From the NCBI GenBank assembly GCA_009927005.1, contig RFNV01000210.1, positions 5,725-69,724 of the forward strand: DNA of 64,000 nucleotides, read 5' to 3'. Origin of the DNA: Pseudomonadota bacterium (GTDB taxonomy: Bacteria > Bdellovibrionota > FAC87 > UBA2466). The position numbers and the translations under genes were made by a program. The notes below the pieces were generated by a model, which was given only the letters and a program-made list of their open reading frames with translations, was not told the origin of the DNA and made no database searches. Shown here piece by piece: positions 34,438 through 49,302 of this stretch. How positions within the stretch are numbered: the stretch's first letter is position 1; each line of letters opens with the position of its first letter.

Positions 34438-35787
34438 TTAATGAGTTGGATACTCACCTGAGAAACACGCGTGGCAGAATCCCGGTTGGGATTTAGTGGC
34501 GCACACCTGCAATAAGCCGTCCAAGCTTAAGTAGCCTAGCGAATCGGCGCCGATAAAATTTCGAATTTGCTCCACACTGTTTCTGGAAGCGAGCAGTTCC
34601 TTCTGAGTAGGTGTGTCTATCCCATAAAAACAGGGATGCATCGTCGGTGGTGCCGAAATTCTCAAATGCACTTCAGTGGCGCCCGCATCTCTCAGGTGTT
34701 GAATCAGTTTCTTAGAAGTTGTTCCTCGCACCAAACTGTCATCCACTACGACGATTTTCTTTCCGTTGAGAAATCCACTTAACGGATTGAGCTTCAATTT
34801 CACCCCAAAATCGCGAATGGATTGGCTTGGCTCAATAAACGTCCGGCCCATATAGTGACTGCGGATAATTCCCATCTCAAAGGGGATTTTAGATTCCTCG
34901 CTAAACCCAATCGCTGCGTACACCCCCGAGTCAGGAACCGGAATGACCATGTCCGCTTGGGGGATCGGATGCTCTAGGGCCAAGCGCTTTCCCAACGCTT
35001 TTCGAGTTTCGTAGACACCTGCCCCATAGACAATGCTATCAGGCCTTGAAAAATAGATTTGTTCAAAAACACATTTCTTTTGAGCGATTTCATGAAAGGG
35101 ATAAAAAGAACGAGTTGCTTCTTTCCCTTTGAGATCCACAATCACCATTTCTCCAGGCGCTACTTCTCGCTCATACGTCGCGCCAATCAGATCAAAAGCC
35201 GTTGTCTCACTTGCGAACACAGTACTTTCTTGAAATCGCCCCATCACCAAAGGACGAAATCCGTGAGGATCTCTTACTGCGATCAAAGTGTCTTGGTTCA
35301 TCACGAGAAGCGAGTAGGCCCCTTCCACTTGTGCTAAAGCTGCAGTCAAAGCTTTGATGAGATCAGGTTCTCCAGTGCGTGCAATTAAGTGAACGATCAC
35401 TTCAGTATCCGAAGTGCTTTGGAAAATAGAACCCATTTTTTCAAGACGTGAAGTTAAGGAAGTGGCGTTGGTTAAATTTCCATTGTGGGCAACAGTCACC
35501 CATCCCGAGGCTGTACGGACCAGAAAGGGTTGAAGATTTTCGTCTTTGTCTCCCCCAGAAGTAGAGTACCTCGTGTGGCCGATTGCCTGATGTCCCGGAA
35601 GTCGAACTAATTCTTCCGTCGAAAAAATATCACCGACTAACCCTCGTTTTTTAAATGCATAGGGGGTTTCCTCATGACTCGATACAATTCCAGCTCCCTC
35701 TTGTCCCCGATGCTGAAGCGCATGAAGGCCGAGGTAAGTCACGTTAGAGGCTTCGGGATGTCTTGCAATGCCAAAAATAGCACACAT
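34438..35787 (-). CDS. purF: amidophosphoribosyltransferase PurF
   Basis: Start set at MCAIFGI, the N-terminal nucleophile Cys, with ATG 35785-35787 sharing one nucleotide with the purL stop. GATase type II domain plus PRTase domain (VVDDSLVRGTTS). Confidence 0.9.
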   Translation of the reverse strand: MCAIFGIARHPEASNVTYLGLHALQHRGQEGAGIVSSHEETPYAFKKRGLVGDIFSTEELVRLPGHQAIGHTRYSTSGGDKDENLQPFLVRTASGWVTVAHNGNLTNATSLTSRLEKMGSIFQSTSDTEVIVHLIARTGEPDLIKALTAALAQVEGAYSLLVMNQDTLIAVRDPHGFRPLVMGRFQESTVFASETTAFDLIGATYEREVAPGEMVIVDLKGKEATRSFYPFHEIAQKKCVFEQIYFSRPDSIVYGAGVYETRKALGKRLALEHPIPQADMVIPVPDSGVYAAIGFSEESKIPFEMGIIRSHYMGRTFIEPSQSIRDFGVKLKLNPLSGFLNGKKIVVVDDSLVRGTTSKKLIQHLRDAGATEVHLRISAPPTMHPCFYGIDTPTQKELLASRNSVEQIRNFIGADSLGYLSLDGLLQVCATKSQPGFCHACFSGEYPTH

Positions 35788-39656: not shown

Positions 39657-40947
39657 TCCCTAGAACTTTCCCGTACAAGTAGTCTAAGTTTTTCAAAGCA
39701 CTTTGGGTATCAAAGAGCGCATTGAGTTCTACTTGTGGGAGCACTTTAGCGACTTTAGGATCAGCTTTCAATAGATCATGAAACGAAACTTTCTCATCGA
39801 GGGCTCGTAACGCATTGCCCTGCACAATCGCGTAGGCTTCATCTCGCGAAAGGCCTTTTTCAATGAGCTTCAAAAGGACTGTTTGCGAATAAGTAACCCC
39901 TGAGAGCAACTGAAGATTTTCGGTCATCTTCTGGGGATAAACCTCCAGGTTCGTCAGGAGCGCGTTCAATCTCCACAGGACGTAATCGGCAAGGATATTC
40001 GCATCGGGCCCAATCACTCGTTCGACGGAAGAATGGCTAATATCTCGCTCATGCCACAAAGCACAATTCTCCATGGCGGGAATCACCATGCTTCGCAAGA
40101 GCCGAGCAAGCCCAGTGAGATTTTCAGCGCTAATGGGATTTCGCTTGTGGGGCATAGCCGAGGACCCTTTTTGTCCCGAACTGAAGCCCTCCCTCACTTC
40201 TCCGACTTCTGTGCGTTGTAAGTGTCTTAACTCAACCGCTATCGCTTCAACTGAAGACCCAAGTAACGCCAAGGAAGAAAAATAAGCGGCAAACCGATCG
40301 CGTGAAATCACTTGAGTAGAAAGAGAATCTGGCTCAAGCTTCAGCTTTTCGCATACAAACTTCTCTACTTCGGGCGGAACATGGGCGTAGTTTCCGACGG
40401 CTCCCGATAATTTGCCGACGGCAATTTCTTTCTTGGCAGCTTCAACACGTCCATAGGCTCGCTTCAGACTGTCATGCCACAAGAGCCACTTCATTCCCAT
40501 CGTCATCGGTTCTGCGTGGATTCCGTGAGTTCTCCCCATCATGAGGGTATTTCTATCTTGAAGAGCTCGTTTTTTAGTGGTTTCTAAACACTCCCGAATT
40601 CCCGAGAGTACCAGCTCAGCCGATTTAGTTAATCGATAAGCAAAGGCAGTATCCACAATATCGCTTGAGGTAAGACCCAAGTGCACAAAGCGCCCCGAAT
40701 CCCCGATAGTTCTTTGAACCTCAGAAACAAAAGCAGCTACATCGTGTTTGGTCTTCTTTTCGGTTTCCCGAATGCGATCGATTTCAAACCCAGCACGCTC
40801 CTGAATATTTTTCATGTCCGCAACTGGAATCTTTCCGAGCTTTGCCCAGCCTTCGCAGGCAAGAACTTCGATATCCAACCAGGTTCGGTACTGGGTTTCT
40901 TCGGACCAGAGGTGCGACATCTCTGGTCGGCTATACCTTTCGATCAC
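39646..40947 (-). CDS. purB: adenylosuccinate lyase PurB
   Basis: 433 aa. Fumarate-lyase signature GSSAMPHKRNP. N-terminal MIERYSRPEM. Confidence 0.9.
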   Translation of the reverse strand: MIERYSRPEMSHLWSEETQYRTWLDIEVLACEGWAKLGKIPVADMKNIQERAGFEIDRIRETEKKTKHDVAAFVSEVQRTIGDSGRFVHLGLTSSDIVDTAFAYRLTKSAELVLSGIRECLETTKKRALQDRNTLMMGRTHGIHAEPMTMGMKWLLWHDSLKRAYGRVEAAKKEIAVGKLSGAVGNYAHVPPEVEKFVCEKLKLEPDSLSTQVISRDRFAAYFSSLALLGSSVEAIAVELRHLQRTEVGEVREGFSSGQKGSSAMPHKRNPISAENLTGLARLLRSMVIPAMENCALWHERDISHSSVERVIGPDANILADYVLWRLNALLTNLEVYPQKMTENLQLLSGVTYSQTVLLKLIEKGLSRDEAYAIVQGNALRALDEKVSFHDLLKADPKVAKVLPQVELNALFDTQSALKNLDYLYGKVLGNDN

Positions 40948-41912
40948 TTGGCCTCCTCGATACTGTCATCGGTTATCGAAAAAAGAGCTTCTAGGAGTGT
41001 CTTTCTCGCAAAATCATCTGCGAGACTCAGAGAAATCCCGAAGTCTGCGGCCGTATAATACCTGAAGTAACCCTCGCTATTGAAGTACCAAAGTCCTTGG
41101 ACTTCAGAAATATTGCGAACAAATGCGGCAGTTTTCTTCCCCCCAGCGGTCGTATCGTAGATCTTAGAAGGGGCTTCATAGCCATTTGGCATTTTTTCCT
41201 GATTAAATCGGATAATCGTTTCTTCAACTCCGTTTTGGCTCTTCTTTTCGTACTCATTTTTAATGAAGTAATTGAAAGCCGATACGATTCCCACAAAAGA
41301 GGGTCCCTTCACACTCAAGGAAATTAAAAAGGGAGAGCTCTCAACGGGTCCTGGAGGCAAAACTTTTCCCGTCTTCTCATCGACACGGTCAAAAAGAAGA
41401 ATCGATGGAATTCCGTGGTTTTGCTTGGTGTACCGACCATTGTCCAACATCCGAGCAGTCGCTTTATCAAAAGCCCCACGTATTTGGCTCTGCGATAGGC
41501 CGAGTGCTGGGAGGTAGCAAGAGCCATCTGCGATATACCATCGCTGTGTTCCGCTAGGAGCATAGACCGTTCGGTGATCAATCGGCCGAGTCGCGCACTC
41601 ACCACACTCTTCCATTTTTCCGATCAACGAATCTCTCAGTCGGCTGACGTTTTTTTCTTGGGCATCTAAAGCACTTGCAGCGGCTCCCGATTTAATTAAC
41701 GAAAGCAGTTTGTTTTTTTCTTCACGGTGTTTTAATCGCAAATCCTGAAGCTCAGTAGCGCACTGTTGGTTTGCTAACCTCGATTGGAAATATTCAGCTA
41801 CCGGCTTTCCTTGAGTAAGCCCCAAATCCAACTGAGCCTCCGGAATCACCGGACGTTCATTGGCCATAAGCTTCAAAGCTACCGTTAATCCCAAGAGCAT
41901 CTGTTTTTTCAT
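40944..41912 (-). CDS. hypothetical secreted protein
   Basis: 322 aa. Signal peptide MKKQMLLGLTVALKLMA. Coiled-coil-like N-region and a CGEC pair. No family recognised. ATGA overlaps on both sides: with the large lipoprotein upstream and with purB downstream. Confidence 0.55.
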   Translation of the reverse strand: MKKQMLLGLTVALKLMANERPVIPEAQLDLGLTQGKPVAEYFQSRLANQQCATELQDLRLKHREEKNKLLSLIKSGAAASALDAQEKNVSRLRDSLIGKMEECGECATRPIDHRTVYAPSGTQRWYIADGSCYLPALGLSQSQIRGAFDKATARMLDNGRYTKQNHGIPSILLFDRVDEKTGKVLPPGPVESSPFLISLSVKGPSFVGIVSAFNYFIKNEYEKKSQNGVEETIIRFNQEKMPNGYEAPSKIYDTTAGGKKTAAFVRNISEVQGLWYFNSEGYFRYYTAADFGISLSLADDFARKTLLEALFSITDDSIEEAK

Positions 41913-44386
41913 GGCGTTTCTCCTTTTTTAAAAATCATTTGAGCAGAATCAAGAATCGAGAGTAGTTCCCCTGAGCGATCCATTTCCAAAACCATGATTG
42001 CAATTTCCTGCATTCTTTCATTTTGGATTCGAGCTAAAAGATGCATTCCCTCATCAATCACTTTCTTTTCCGACAAAAGGCGAAATTCCTTGATGAGCTC
42101 CAAAAAGGAAATATGGCTTTTTCGCATCTTGAGAAGATCGCGAAGCTCTGAGAATCCATTGTTTTTAGAGAAGTTGATAGCCCACTGACTTTCTGAATCT
42201 GTGATTCTCCACTCGGTTTTAAAAAGACTTTGGACGAGCGTTGAAATCCTTGCCGGACTTTCTCGTTGGACAAGTTTGGTCAGAAATCCAAACAATACAT
42301 CAGCCCCATTTTGACCTGAGAGGTCTTCTCCGAGTACTGCATTTACTTTTTCTTGAAGAAGTCTCGCCTGAAGGGTTGAAAGCCCAGCGAAGCCTCTCAA
42401 GCCTCTGGCAATCTGATTTCCATTAAGAAGGAGTGATTGAAATCCCGGAAAGGCGGGAACTCCTTCTTCAGATTCATTAAACAAAGAAAGTTCAGAGAAA
42501 ATGCTTAAACTATTTCCCAGCTTGGAAATGTCAGGCGCGGCAAATTTCTTTATGAATGAATGATAAAAACTAAATACCTCATCTAAAGCGTAAATGCTTT
42601 GAACGTTTACTAGAACTTCGTTGACCCACTCAGCTACTTCGAGATCAGATTGAAAAAGACTGACCAGTAAGGCTCTGTCTTCCATCTCAAGTTCACCGAG
42701 TTTGAGATCCACAAAGATAAGTTTTCTTAGGTGCTCCCATTGCTTGCTACTTAGCTGGGCTAAAAACCCTTGAGCTTGGGCCAGCAAGTTGGGTGAGCTC
42801 TTCAAAAGCTCAAGACTCAATCCCCTTTCCGAATGACTCCCCACCAAGCTTTGGACCAGAGTGACCAAAAAGGGGGTGATATCCGCAAAAGGTCTCACCG
42901 CATGCGCCGAAGCGAGTGCTTCAGAGAACCCTTCAGCTAAAGTGAGCGTTTCGGAAGAAAAAGCCACTGAGTAACTGTTCTTTCCGCTATCTTGTTCTCG
43001 AACCAAACTTTCCAATCGAGAGAGAGTGGAAAGAAGGCCCAGGCTTTGAAGATCTTGTTTTACCGAATCAGAAACCGCATCTTTCGAGTCTTCCTTGGTG
43101 AGACTTAATCGAAACTCCTTCAAGGACAGAGGACTTTTCCAGAGCAGTTCTTCAAACGATTCTGGTCCCAACTCTTTTACTTGGGGAGCCGACTGACGAA
43201 CCGATTCTTCAAGAAAACGCGTGAGAAAAAGAGCATTGAGTTGGAGCGGCAACCGATAAGACCCGCCGTCGGCTTGAGCTTCCAGCCGCCGGGGATCAGA
43301 TATCTTTTGTATCCCCGAGTACAGAACCGAATAAAGTCGAATAAATTCTTGCGTAGGAGGAGCGCTGACTTCCCTCCTCGGAAGCGCTAACCAAAAGGCT
43401 CGGTCTAATGGGCTTCCATCTTCTGGCTTTAAGATGACCTGTCTAACGGTTTCTGAAAGTGACTGAACAAAAATCGGATCCCACTTCATCGTTAAAGCGT
43501 GAACAATATCCGGATTCGAGCGAAGACCCTCTTGAAGAACAGTCACCACTTTTTCAGCAGGACGATTAAGAAGTTCTGCCAATCGTAGGGCTTGGCTCAG
43601 AGAAGTTCGTTTTTCACCAAAACTTTTCGCTAATGCACTAAACCGATCTTCACCTGAGGCTTTTAAATGTTCGCGGCTCGCCTCAGCGAGTGGGGCTGCC
43701 CATTGGAGATCTGCTACAGAGTCTAAAAGTCCTCGAAGCTTTGAGCGGGTTGGCTCATTGCCCATGAGCTGAAACACTTCCTCAAAGATTTTTTCTGTTT
43801 TCAAATTCGGTTTCTCAGGCACTTCTAGGAATTGGTTTGAAGCAGACTGGAGAGGTTTCAGAACTCCATTCACAAAATTTGGATCCAAAAGCCCAACTGC
43901 TCGGGGGAGCAACTCCCAAACCGCTTCATCTTCGAGGACACTGGGTAGAGCACTGCCCAATTTCTGAATACTTTTTCTCAAACTCGAAAACCCTTGGGTT
44001 TTAACGCGAGACTTCACTAGTTGAATCAAGCCTCTTTTAGAAAGCGCGTCTTGATACACCCATTCGTTGAGGAAACGGCCCCAAGCGGAGAGTTCATCAT
44101 CAGAAAGTGCCCCGATTGCTTCGGCTAGGGAATTAAACTCACCCTTTTGGTTTAGGATTTTGAAAAGTTCTTTTAGGTCCTTAGCGCCCAACTCTCTTCC
44201 TAAAATCAGGTGGTCACTTGGCGTGGAAATGGGTCCAGGAAGAACAGGTCTTTGAAGCGGTTTACCGCACCCCAAAAGACCGCAGAGCAGGAAGAGAACT
44301 CCCCCAATTTGAATGGATTTCAACCGGAACACGGGCGGCACTTTACCCTTTTTAATGCGCCGAGTCAACACTCCGCTGCTATCCAC
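41909..44386 (-). CDS. large hypothetical Leu-rich alpha-helical lipoprotein or membrane-anchored protein
   Basis: 825 aa. N-terminal hydrophobic segment with lipobox-like LLGCG. The remainder is Leu/Ser/Glu-rich and predicted helical. No catalytic motif recognised. Confidence 0.55.
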   Translation of the reverse strand: MDSSGVLTRRIKKGKVPPVFRLKSIQIGGVLFLLCGLLGCGKPLQRPVLPGPISTPSDHLILGRELGAKDLKELFKILNQKGEFNSLAEAIGALSDDELSAWGRFLNEWVYQDALSKRGLIQLVKSRVKTQGFSSLRKSIQKLGSALPSVLEDEAVWELLPRAVGLLDPNFVNGVLKPLQSASNQFLEVPEKPNLKTEKIFEEVFQLMGNEPTRSKLRGLLDSVADLQWAAPLAEASREHLKASGEDRFSALAKSFGEKRTSLSQALRLAELLNRPAEKVVTVLQEGLRSNPDIVHALTMKWDPIFVQSLSETVRQVILKPEDGSPLDRAFWLALPRREVSAPPTQEFIRLYSVLYSGIQKISDPRRLEAQADGGSYRLPLQLNALFLTRFLEESVRQSAPQVKELGPESFEELLWKSPLSLKEFRLSLTKEDSKDAVSDSVKQDLQSLGLLSTLSRLESLVREQDSGKNSYSVAFSSETLTLAEGFSEALASAHAVRPFADITPFLVTLVQSLVGSHSERGLSLELLKSSPNLLAQAQGFLAQLSSKQWEHLRKLIFVDLKLGELEMEDRALLVSLFQSDLEVAEWVNEVLVNVQSIYALDEVFSFYHSFIKKFAAPDISKLGNSLSIFSELSLFNESEEGVPAFPGFQSLLLNGNQIARGLRGFAGLSTLQARLLQEKVNAVLGEDLSGQNGADVLFGFLTKLVQRESPARISTLVQSLFKTEWRITDSESQWAINFSKNNGFSELRDLLKMRKSHISFLELIKEFRLLSEKKVIDEGMHLLARIQNERMQEIAIMVLEMDRSGELLSILDSAQMIFKKGETP

Positions 44387-44405
44387 TAAGTTATTGTATT
44401 TATGA

Positions 44406-45380
44406 TTATTTCTGGCCTATCCGCTTTAGTATCTGGGCCGCCTGAACGGAGCCGGCAAGAATAGCCGCCCGTTTCTGGGAAAAATCGAGAGGGGATGCCT
44501 TTAACTCCACTTGAAAAGCTCCCTCAGCTTGCGCCAGTTCTTCTCGGATATTTTTTCGTAATGAAGCTAAAAAGACATTTCGAATGGTTGGCTTTTTAGG
44601 GCTCTCTTTCGCGCTTTTAGAAAAACCAATGTAGTCCGAATACATTTGCACTGCAAAAACCGGATACGCCCCTCTTTTTTTAGCTTCAGATACTCCCAGA
44701 GCTTGAAGATCAAATGCCTGAAGAGACGAAGACTCTTGTTCTGGAAAGCTTCGATAAAGCCCGGGAACAGCCAACGTTTTTAAAATGGGTTCCACCCATT
44801 CTCCAGAATCGAAGACCCCTTGTTTTTCCTTTTCCGTGTTGCCAACCACAAGAATGACTGGGGTTTGGGAATCCCTTAAATCTTTTTTCTTAAGAAAACT
44901 CTCGATAAGCTTGGAAAGCTCTCCTTCGTCTTCACCTTTTTTTAATTTACAAGCTTTCTCAAAGTCTTCGCTTTGAAGCCTCATGGCAAACCACTCAAGG
45001 TCATGTACCGATTTAAAAAATCCGTAACCCAGAGCAAAAACTGCTGGCCAACCAGTCGCTACAATCAAATCAATTTTTACCCCCTCCTTTTTTAATCGCT
45101 TAAGTAGGCCAACGGTTGCAAAGCTCGCAACTCCAGCACCGCCCAAAACAAGCGTTATCCCCGGTTTTTTAGCAAAAGAGCTTTCTGAGTTACCGGCTGC
45201 GGCGCCCGGAGTGATCGGAAACTCCATTCGGGTATCAGAATCGGTTTGTACTGGACTGGAATCGACGTTTTCTAAATCCTGAAACGGTTTGAAATCCGGT
45301 GTGGGCCGTTTGATAGCGCACGCAGAAAGACTGAGAATCAAATAGAAACAAAAAAGAAAAGGCAGTTTTCTAGCGCTCAT
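44406..45380 (-). CDS. patatin-like phospholipase-domain lipoprotein, probably catalytically degenerate
   Basis: 324 aa. Lipobox LSLSAC. LVLGGAGVASFATVGLLKRLKKEGVKIDLIVATGWPAVFALGY aligns with the patatin Gly-rich and GxSxG region, but with ATGWP where GTSAG is expected, so the nucleophilic Ser appears replaced by Gly. Confidence 0.55.
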   Translation of the reverse strand: MSARKLPFLFCFYLILSLSACAIKRPTPDFKPFQDLENVDSSPVQTDSDTRMEFPITPGAAAGNSESSFAKKPGITLVLGGAGVASFATVGLLKRLKKEGVKIDLIVATGWPAVFALGYGFFKSVHDLEWFAMRLQSEDFEKACKLKKGEDEGELSKLIESFLKKKDLRDSQTPVILVVGNTEKEKQGVFDSGEWVEPILKTLAVPGLYRSFPEQESSSLQAFDLQALGVSEAKKRGAYPVFAVQMYSDYIGFSKSAKESPKKPTIRNVFLASLRKNIREELAQAEGAFQVELKASPLDFSQKRAAILAGSVQAAQILKRIGQK

Positions 45381-48970: not shown

Positions 48971-49215
48971 TGAGAAACATTAAAAGGAGTGGTTTTGAGG
49001 TCCCCTTCTGGAGTCTGCATGAGCAATTCCACTTTTCGCTCAACTTCTTCCAATTGCTTTAAGCACTCACGGGATAACGCCACCCCTTTTTCAAAAGCCT
49101 TGAGTTGAGCTTCCAGGGGAATGTCTCCGCCCTCAAGCTGGCCCACGATTTTCTCAAGTTCCTTCAAAGAGGTTTCAAATGTGTTGTTTTCTGTAGGTTT
49201 GCTCATAGGTTCCAA
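48967..49215 (-). CDS. xseB: exodeoxyribonuclease VII small subunit XseB
   Basis: 82 aa. FETSLKELEKIVGQLEGGDIPLEAQLKAFEKGVALSRECLKQLEEVERKVE is the typical XseB pattern. First gene of the array. Confidence 0.85.
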   Translation of the reverse strand: MEPMSKPTENNTFETSLKELEKIVGQLEGGDIPLEAQLKAFEKGVALSRECLKQLEEVERKVELLMQTPEGDLKTTPFNVSQ

Positions 49216-49302
49216 AGAATAGGTGACCCGGGCTCAGACTGTCAATCCGAGCGCTGTTTAAATTGACATTACGGATAGATAGCCCCAAACAGATAAGAAA
49301 CG

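Follow-up and report, generated by a model that had tools for sequence, protein, structure and literature searches.

Lipid movement across the periplasm of diderm bacteria is only partly understood, and the carriers known to contribute to it (MlaC, LolA, LptA and the AsmA-like bridges) use folds other than that of the START domain, which eukaryotes employ for lipid transfer between organelles. Here we describe three genes in a 64-kb window of the Bdellovibrionota contig RFNV01000210.1 (the window being the whole stretch of DNA analyzed), which lie co-directionally on the minus strand between tlyA and purB. They encode a patatin-like lipoprotein of 324 residues (44406−45380), a large Leu-rich lipoprotein (longest open reading frame (ORF) 41909−44386) and a secreted protein of 322 residues (40944−41912), and the three proteins are exported, lineage-restricted and kept in a conserved arrangement, with a patatin fold that is probably catalytically dead, an orphan fold and a START fold, respectively. 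A preliminary description of the stretch had placed these genes between tlyA and purB, had recognized no intact catalytic motif in any of the products and had proposed a tightly coupled, stoichiometric envelope complex with a possible role in lipid handling. Our analysis bears out the gene order and the missing motifs, strengthens the lipid-handling guess through the START fold predicted for the presumed periplasmic partner, and argues against a single stoichiometric operon. The only database records identical to the three ORF products are entries named 'hypothetical protein EBQ92_...' from a freshwater 'Proteobacteria bacterium' metagenome-assembled genome (MAG), and no earlier account of the proteins turned up in literature searches.

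The AlphaFold2 (AF2) model of the 322-residue protein, with a predicted local distance difference test score (pLDDT) of 89.3 and a predicted template-modeling score (pTM) of 0.85, features a helical hairpin (residues 49−103) and, after it, three strands, a pair of short helices, a sheet of seven to eight strands and a C-terminal helix of 24 residues. The region from about residue 104 to 321 is a helix-grip domain, with the curved antiparallel sheet around a long C-terminal helix that is typical of START/SRPBCC and Bet v 1-like proteins, and the modeled fold is that of the START lipid-transfer proteins. Neither Pfam nor NCBIfam returned a family for the window protein, 16 of its homologues or 10 distant representatives, and a sequence-profile search of the PDB gave no match at E ≤ 10; a Pfam 4HB_MCP_1 candidate (E = 0.009) was set aside, as it merely reflects the helical hairpin. 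Among 1.84 billion representatives, a profile search recovered just 122 relatives, nearly all of 290−400 residues and of a single architecture, none of them with a Pfam domain or an informative name. Compared with the described START lipid transfer proteins (StARD5, CERT/StARD11, MLN64/StARD3, StAR and the Xanthomonas protein 3qsz), to which it has no detectable sequence similarity, the protein carries an extra N-terminal hairpin and four invariant cysteines (Cys51, Cys103, Cys106 and Cys132, including a CGEC motif), is exported by a signal peptide and belongs to a family that is restricted to Bdellovibrionota and always encoded beside purB. The C[GS]xC motif recurs in 103 of the 113 full-length family members. 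Secretion had been proposed beforehand and is borne out by a cleavable signal peptide (residues 1−17, pLDDT < 50; consensus ...FA-xxRP, with cleavage after FA), and the family’s signal peptides generally lack a lipobox, a lipobox-like sequence being present in just 3 of the 113 members. In the mechanism we propose, the START-fold protein would act as a soluble, probably disulfide-stabilized carrier able to enclose a lipid, with Cys51−Cys103 and Cys106−Cys132 as the predicted disulfide pairs.

The patatin-like lipoprotein had been called degenerate from the outset, and rightly so. It matches the Pfam Patatin family (PF01734) marginally, at 28.6 bits where the gathering cut-off is 27.7, and its only related match in the PDB is PlpD (5fqu, E = 0.0019). 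With patatin-like phospholipases such as PlpD and RssA it has in common, besides the marginal Pfam match, the overall length, the motif order, a Gly-rich N-terminal loop (GGAG) and a PG motif; it differs from them in the replaced GxSxG signature, in the missing basic residue of the oxyanion loop, in the Gly of the column taken as the DGG Asp and in its lipid anchor. In the HMMER alignment to PlpD, which spans residues 72−135 only, ATGWP falls on GTSMG, and Gly110 stands at the position of the nucleophilic Ser. Throughout a family of 120 homologues [ST]-G-W-P (more fully [AT][TS]GWP) replaces the GxSxG signature, with G110 and P112 present in all 120 sequences and T/S109 and W111 in 119 each. 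The oxyanion loop reads GGAGVAS in place of GGGxRG, where G80, G81 and G83 are invariant or nearly so and the basic Arg/Lys residue is absent. The column corresponding to the Asp of the PlpD DGG motif was set by eye after the conserved PG motif; in the column thus placed the window protein has Gly229, and the family has Asp in 85 and Gly in 18 of the 120 sequences. The protein starts with a signal peptide and a lipobox (LSLSAC, Cys21), and nearly all full-length homologues likewise have a hydrophobic N-terminal segment that ends in Cys. Several further residues are near-invariant (H126 in 119 and D127 in 114 of the 120 homologues, E129, W130, D249, K303 and R304), which indicates that the protein is under strong constraint. 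We conclude from these sequence features that it is probably a lipid-anchored patatin-fold pseudoenzyme, and the Ser-less family would provide a clean case of a conserved bacterial pseudoenzyme with a lipase fold. Having lost the catalytic Ser and apparently the Asp, it could bind an acyl lipid instead of hydrolyzing it, as an accessory partner of the other two proteins. PADLOC, whose defense-system models include the patatin-containing, CapV-type cyclic oligonucleotide-based antiphage signaling systems (CBASS), matched none of the three proteins, and a defense-system reading of the trio was rejected on that ground.

The large lipoprotein had been described as an 825-residue, Leu-rich helical lipoprotein, of which all but the length stands. 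Its homologues start with MFRVK or MLRLK, matching V-F-R-L-K in the window, and in one related locus (L001) the stretch 5' of the equivalent codon is not in frame with it; translation thus most likely begins at GTG 44332, yielding a product of 807 residues (41909−44332). Leu accounts for 16.4% of the residues, the lipobox reads LLGC with a Cys that is invariant in the family, and the AF2 model (pLDDT 80.8, pTM 0.71) consists almost wholly of helices, apart from a small β insert at residues 424−475. No fold match emerged from structure comparison against the PDB, nor any family match from Pfam, NCBIfam or PADLOC, and weak hits to saposin (E ≈ 0.45) and ornithine aminomutase (E = 0.053) in a sequence-profile search of the PDB were dismissed. 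The best-conserved stretch, at about residues 345−395 (DPRRLExQxDxGSYRLPLQLNALFLT), contains a loop modeled with a pLDDT of about 50 (residues 365−376), which is plausibly a partner or ligand site, perhaps ordered only on binding. We envisage the large lipoprotein as a membrane-anchored donor or acceptor for the START-fold carrier.

To place the three genes in a wider context, we compared 19 non-redundant loci of Bdellovibrionota-type MAGs, in which identity to the window ranges from 64 to 95% for PurB and drops to as little as 26% for the START-fold protein and 21% for the large lipoprotein; in one close MAG (L007), the START-fold protein is 91% identical. All 19 loci carry the START-fold gene immediately 5' of purB, about 13 of them with a 4-nt overlap of stop and start, and the large lipoprotein gene lies directly 5' of the START-fold gene in 16/19. 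Further upstream, the patatin-like gene is directly 5' of the large lipoprotein gene in 12 of the 15 loci with visible sequence, and tlyA directly 5' of the patatin-like gene in all ten loci where that region can be seen. Conservation of the trio and its neighborhood in related genomes, a check that had been named beforehand, is thus found across divergent members of the phylum. Stop/start overlaps are ordinary in compact operons; the conserved arrangement across genomes exceeds chance. The G+C content of the three genes, both overall and at third codon positions, matches that of their neighbors, which gives no sign of a recent horizontal insertion of the trio, a reading rejected on this ground, and, with the shared gene order, upholds the earlier view that the genes are not a random insertion. 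In the searches run, members of the three families turned up only in metagenomic Bdellovibrionota-type genomes, and the cluster names of the homologues are limited to 'hypothetical protein', 'NTE family protein' and 'RssA', with no cultured organism among them.

Two related loci encode other enzymes next to the START-fold gene. Directly 5' of it, L022 (8031−8885) has a gene for a secreted α/β-hydrolase with an intact GKSMGG serine motif and a Pfam Hydrolase_4/Esterase assignment; the patatin-like gene is missing from this locus, and in this single example an active lipase-type enzyme might stand in place of the dead patatin-fold protein. In L019 (11559−12618), genes for a TPMT-family methyltransferase and a 4HBT thioesterase are inserted between the large lipoprotein gene and the START-fold gene.

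The junctions between the genes of the window differ from the ATGA overlaps throughout that had been described. As stated earlier, the tlyA stop and the patatin-like gene start overlap by 11 nt (ATGAGCGCTAG), and the large lipoprotein and START-fold genes do share an ATGA; the junction of the START-fold gene and purB is instead GTGA, where the GTG start of purB overlaps the preceding stop, and the patatin-like and large lipoprotein genes do not overlap at all, being separated by 19 nt up to the longest ORF and by 73 nt up to GTG 44332. Alignment of this gap across relatives reveals a sigma-70-like element, TTGACT-N17-TAAAGT (44368−44340, minus strand), which ends 7 nt before the GTG and is the sole match to that pattern in the window. 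The same architecture is found 5' of the large lipoprotein gene in 9 of 17 sequences (the window and 16 loci), including those with about 23−25% protein identity (shuffles, 0.007), and looser variants occur in other loci. Generic promoter and terminator scans performed at chance level, and only the cross-locus comparison made one of the sites they gave credible. Judging by its position, the element would be a promoter that gives rise to a leaderless or near-leaderless transcript.

A second element, TTGAAW-N17-TAYNTT, is present 5' of the START-fold gene in 9 of the 15 loci with an intergenic gap there, and L008−L010 have a TATGGT variant. In most relatives (L004, L008−L017, L019 and L021, for example L014 at about 9857−9885) such an element lies 35−60 nt 5' of the START-fold gene and would have the purBCSQLF operon begin with that gene. 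It was not found in the window’s clade, where the large lipoprotein and START-fold genes overlap instead. Given the conserved elements before each of these two genes, the trio does not appear to be one obligatory transcript: the ancestral units look like [tlyA-patatin-like], [large lipoprotein] and [START-fold-purBCSQLF], and in the window’s clade the large lipoprotein, START-fold and pur genes seem to share the promoter before the large lipoprotein gene. The notion of three genes spliced into one isoprenoid/purine array is therefore misleading, as two separate conserved operons abut the trio, and the proposed tight coupling of all three genes fails at the gap that holds the first element. The patatin-like gene has no evident terminator behind it, which makes read-through possible, and Rfam detected neither a riboswitch nor a leader RNA in the vicinity of the pur genes. 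In the model that we propose, translation of the patatin-like gene is coupled to that of tlyA, and a conserved near-leaderless promoter would drive the large lipoprotein gene, the START-fold gene and purBCSQLF in this genome. Such a promoter would redefine the purine operon of the lineage, which would begin with envelope genes, and expression wired to housekeeping genes in this way would have the trio made during growth, as befits a part in building or maintaining the envelope more than an accessory or mobile role.

Taking these data together, we favor, with a confidence that falls a little short of even, the view that the trio is a Bdellovibrionota-restricted envelope set which handles a hydrophobic, lipid-like molecule in the periplasm, with the large lipoprotein and the START-fold protein as its core. 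This functional claim draws on fold analogy, on the shared compartment (two lipoboxes and one cleavable signal peptide provide all three proteins with export signals) and on gene linkage, and it is from these that we infer lipid binding, partnership between the proteins and the direction of any transfer. The nearest parallels are the MlaC-MlaA and LolA-LolB pairs, which resemble the proposed arrangement by analogy only, in that membrane-anchored lipoprotein partners serve a carrier that is soluble in the periplasm and has a hydrophobic cavity. The trio differs from them in having no sequence or fold homology, in a START-fold carrier that is neither MlaC-like nor LolA-like and in the absence of an ABC or MCE component encoded alongside; no homology to Mla, Lol, Lpt, AsmA/Tam or MCE components was found for any of the three proteins. 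The more specific proposal of a previously unrecognized lipid-trafficking route, in which a START carrier, an orphan-fold lipoprotein and a dead patatin lipoprotein are expressed from housekeeping operons in the growth phase, is bolder and, as it stands, unlikely. If true, it would to our knowledge be the first description of a periplasmic START-based lipid shuttle in a Gram-negative envelope. A START-fold protein that is exported and conserved throughout a predatory phylum would represent a new type of carrier and, together with the large orphan-fold lipoprotein, would provide a testable candidate for envelope lipid traffic in Bdellovibrio-like organisms.

Several observations weigh against the lipid-handling interpretation, and most of them would suit three functionally unrelated envelope genes, each in a different transcription unit, that have stayed adjacent through synteny inertia. 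Synteny is just as strong in the flanking liv, xseB-ispA-dxs and pur genes, and as the whole block of roughly 20 kb is kept in the lineage, a shared gene order by itself argues only weakly for joint function. Three of 15 loci (L011, L014 and L022) lack the patatin-like gene, and in 3 of 19 the large lipoprotein gene is separated from the START-fold gene by an insertion, which measures about 6 kb in L011 and comprises two genes in L019 and likewise in L022. Both findings also speak against the single stoichiometric operon proposed at first; separate promoter-like elements precede the large lipoprotein gene and, in most relatives, the START-fold gene. Furthermore, START and Bet v 1 folds also bind small molecules other than lipids and can be enzymes, and the tightest linkage of the START-fold gene is to purB and not to either of its presumed partners. 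Inertia nevertheless does not readily explain why all three products are exported and restricted to the same lineage, two of them with lipid-related folds, why the large lipoprotein and START-fold genes remain neighbors where the upstream region is entirely different (L014 and L022), or why their translational coupling through the ATGA overlap arose in the window’s clade, and we consider this explanation possible but on balance doubtful.

The invariable linkage to purB invites another explanation, namely that the START-fold protein binds or senses a small molecule in the periplasm, purine-related or otherwise, and is encoded by the true first gene of purBCSQLF, with the large lipoprotein and the patatin-like protein as bystanders. 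The immediate 5' position in every locus, the frequent 4-nt overlap and the second promoter-like element, which in most relatives would drive the START-fold and pur genes together, are all in its favor, as is the ability of Bet v 1/PR-10 members to bind cytokinins, which are adenine derivatives; it is not obvious, however, what an exported protein would do in a cytoplasmic pathway, and the vicinity holds no known RNA element, riboswitches included, which leaves this account improbable. Least likely of all, and to our mind very much so, is that the patatin-like lipoprotein is still a lipase or acyltransferase with a non-canonical site (for instance Thr/Ser109 with His126/Asp127) and the trio a lipid-remodeling pathway of hydrolysis followed by transfer, for although T/S109, H126, D127, E129, W130, D249 and R304 are conserved to a degree typical of active or binding sites, the nucleophile-elbow Ser and the final Gly of GxSxG are replaced by Gly and Pro in 120/120 homologues, the oxyanion-loop Arg/Lys is lost, and the column taken as the dyad Asp holds Gly in this genome.

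The trio lies between two housekeeping units, both on the minus strand. Upstream, tlyA (45370−46119), which encodes an rRNA 2'-O-methyltransferase (TIGR00478, 211.8 bits; Pfam FtsJ and S4), is the last housekeeping gene of a unit that starts with xseB (about 48967−49206) and continues with ispA (48080−48970) and dxs (46122−48080). Downstream, the purine genes purB-purC-purS-purQ-purL-purF extend down to position 34438, with purB as the first (39646−40947, GTG start; TIGR00928, 488 bits), followed by purC, purS, purQ and purL in that order (assigned by tblastn against Pfam-annotated loci) and by purF (34438−35817, assigned by Pfam). Beyond xseB, a gene for a 624-residue α/β-hydrolase (50444−52318, minus strand) follows one for a Leu/Ile/Val-type periplasmic binding protein (49303−50454); loci L001, L017 and L021 have branched-chain amino-acid permease genes at this position, which points to a local rearrangement beside the otherwise syntenic block. 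Finally, the region 49206−49245 (minus strand) has a strong promoter-like sequence, TTGACA-N18-TATTCT (10/12 matches), which ends at 49216, with an ATG 9 nt downstream at 49206. Translation of xseB thus probably starts at this ATG rather than at the listed TTG 49215 and may proceed from a near-leaderless mRNA, which, along with the element before the large lipoprotein gene, is a hint that this organism commonly makes leaderless transcripts.

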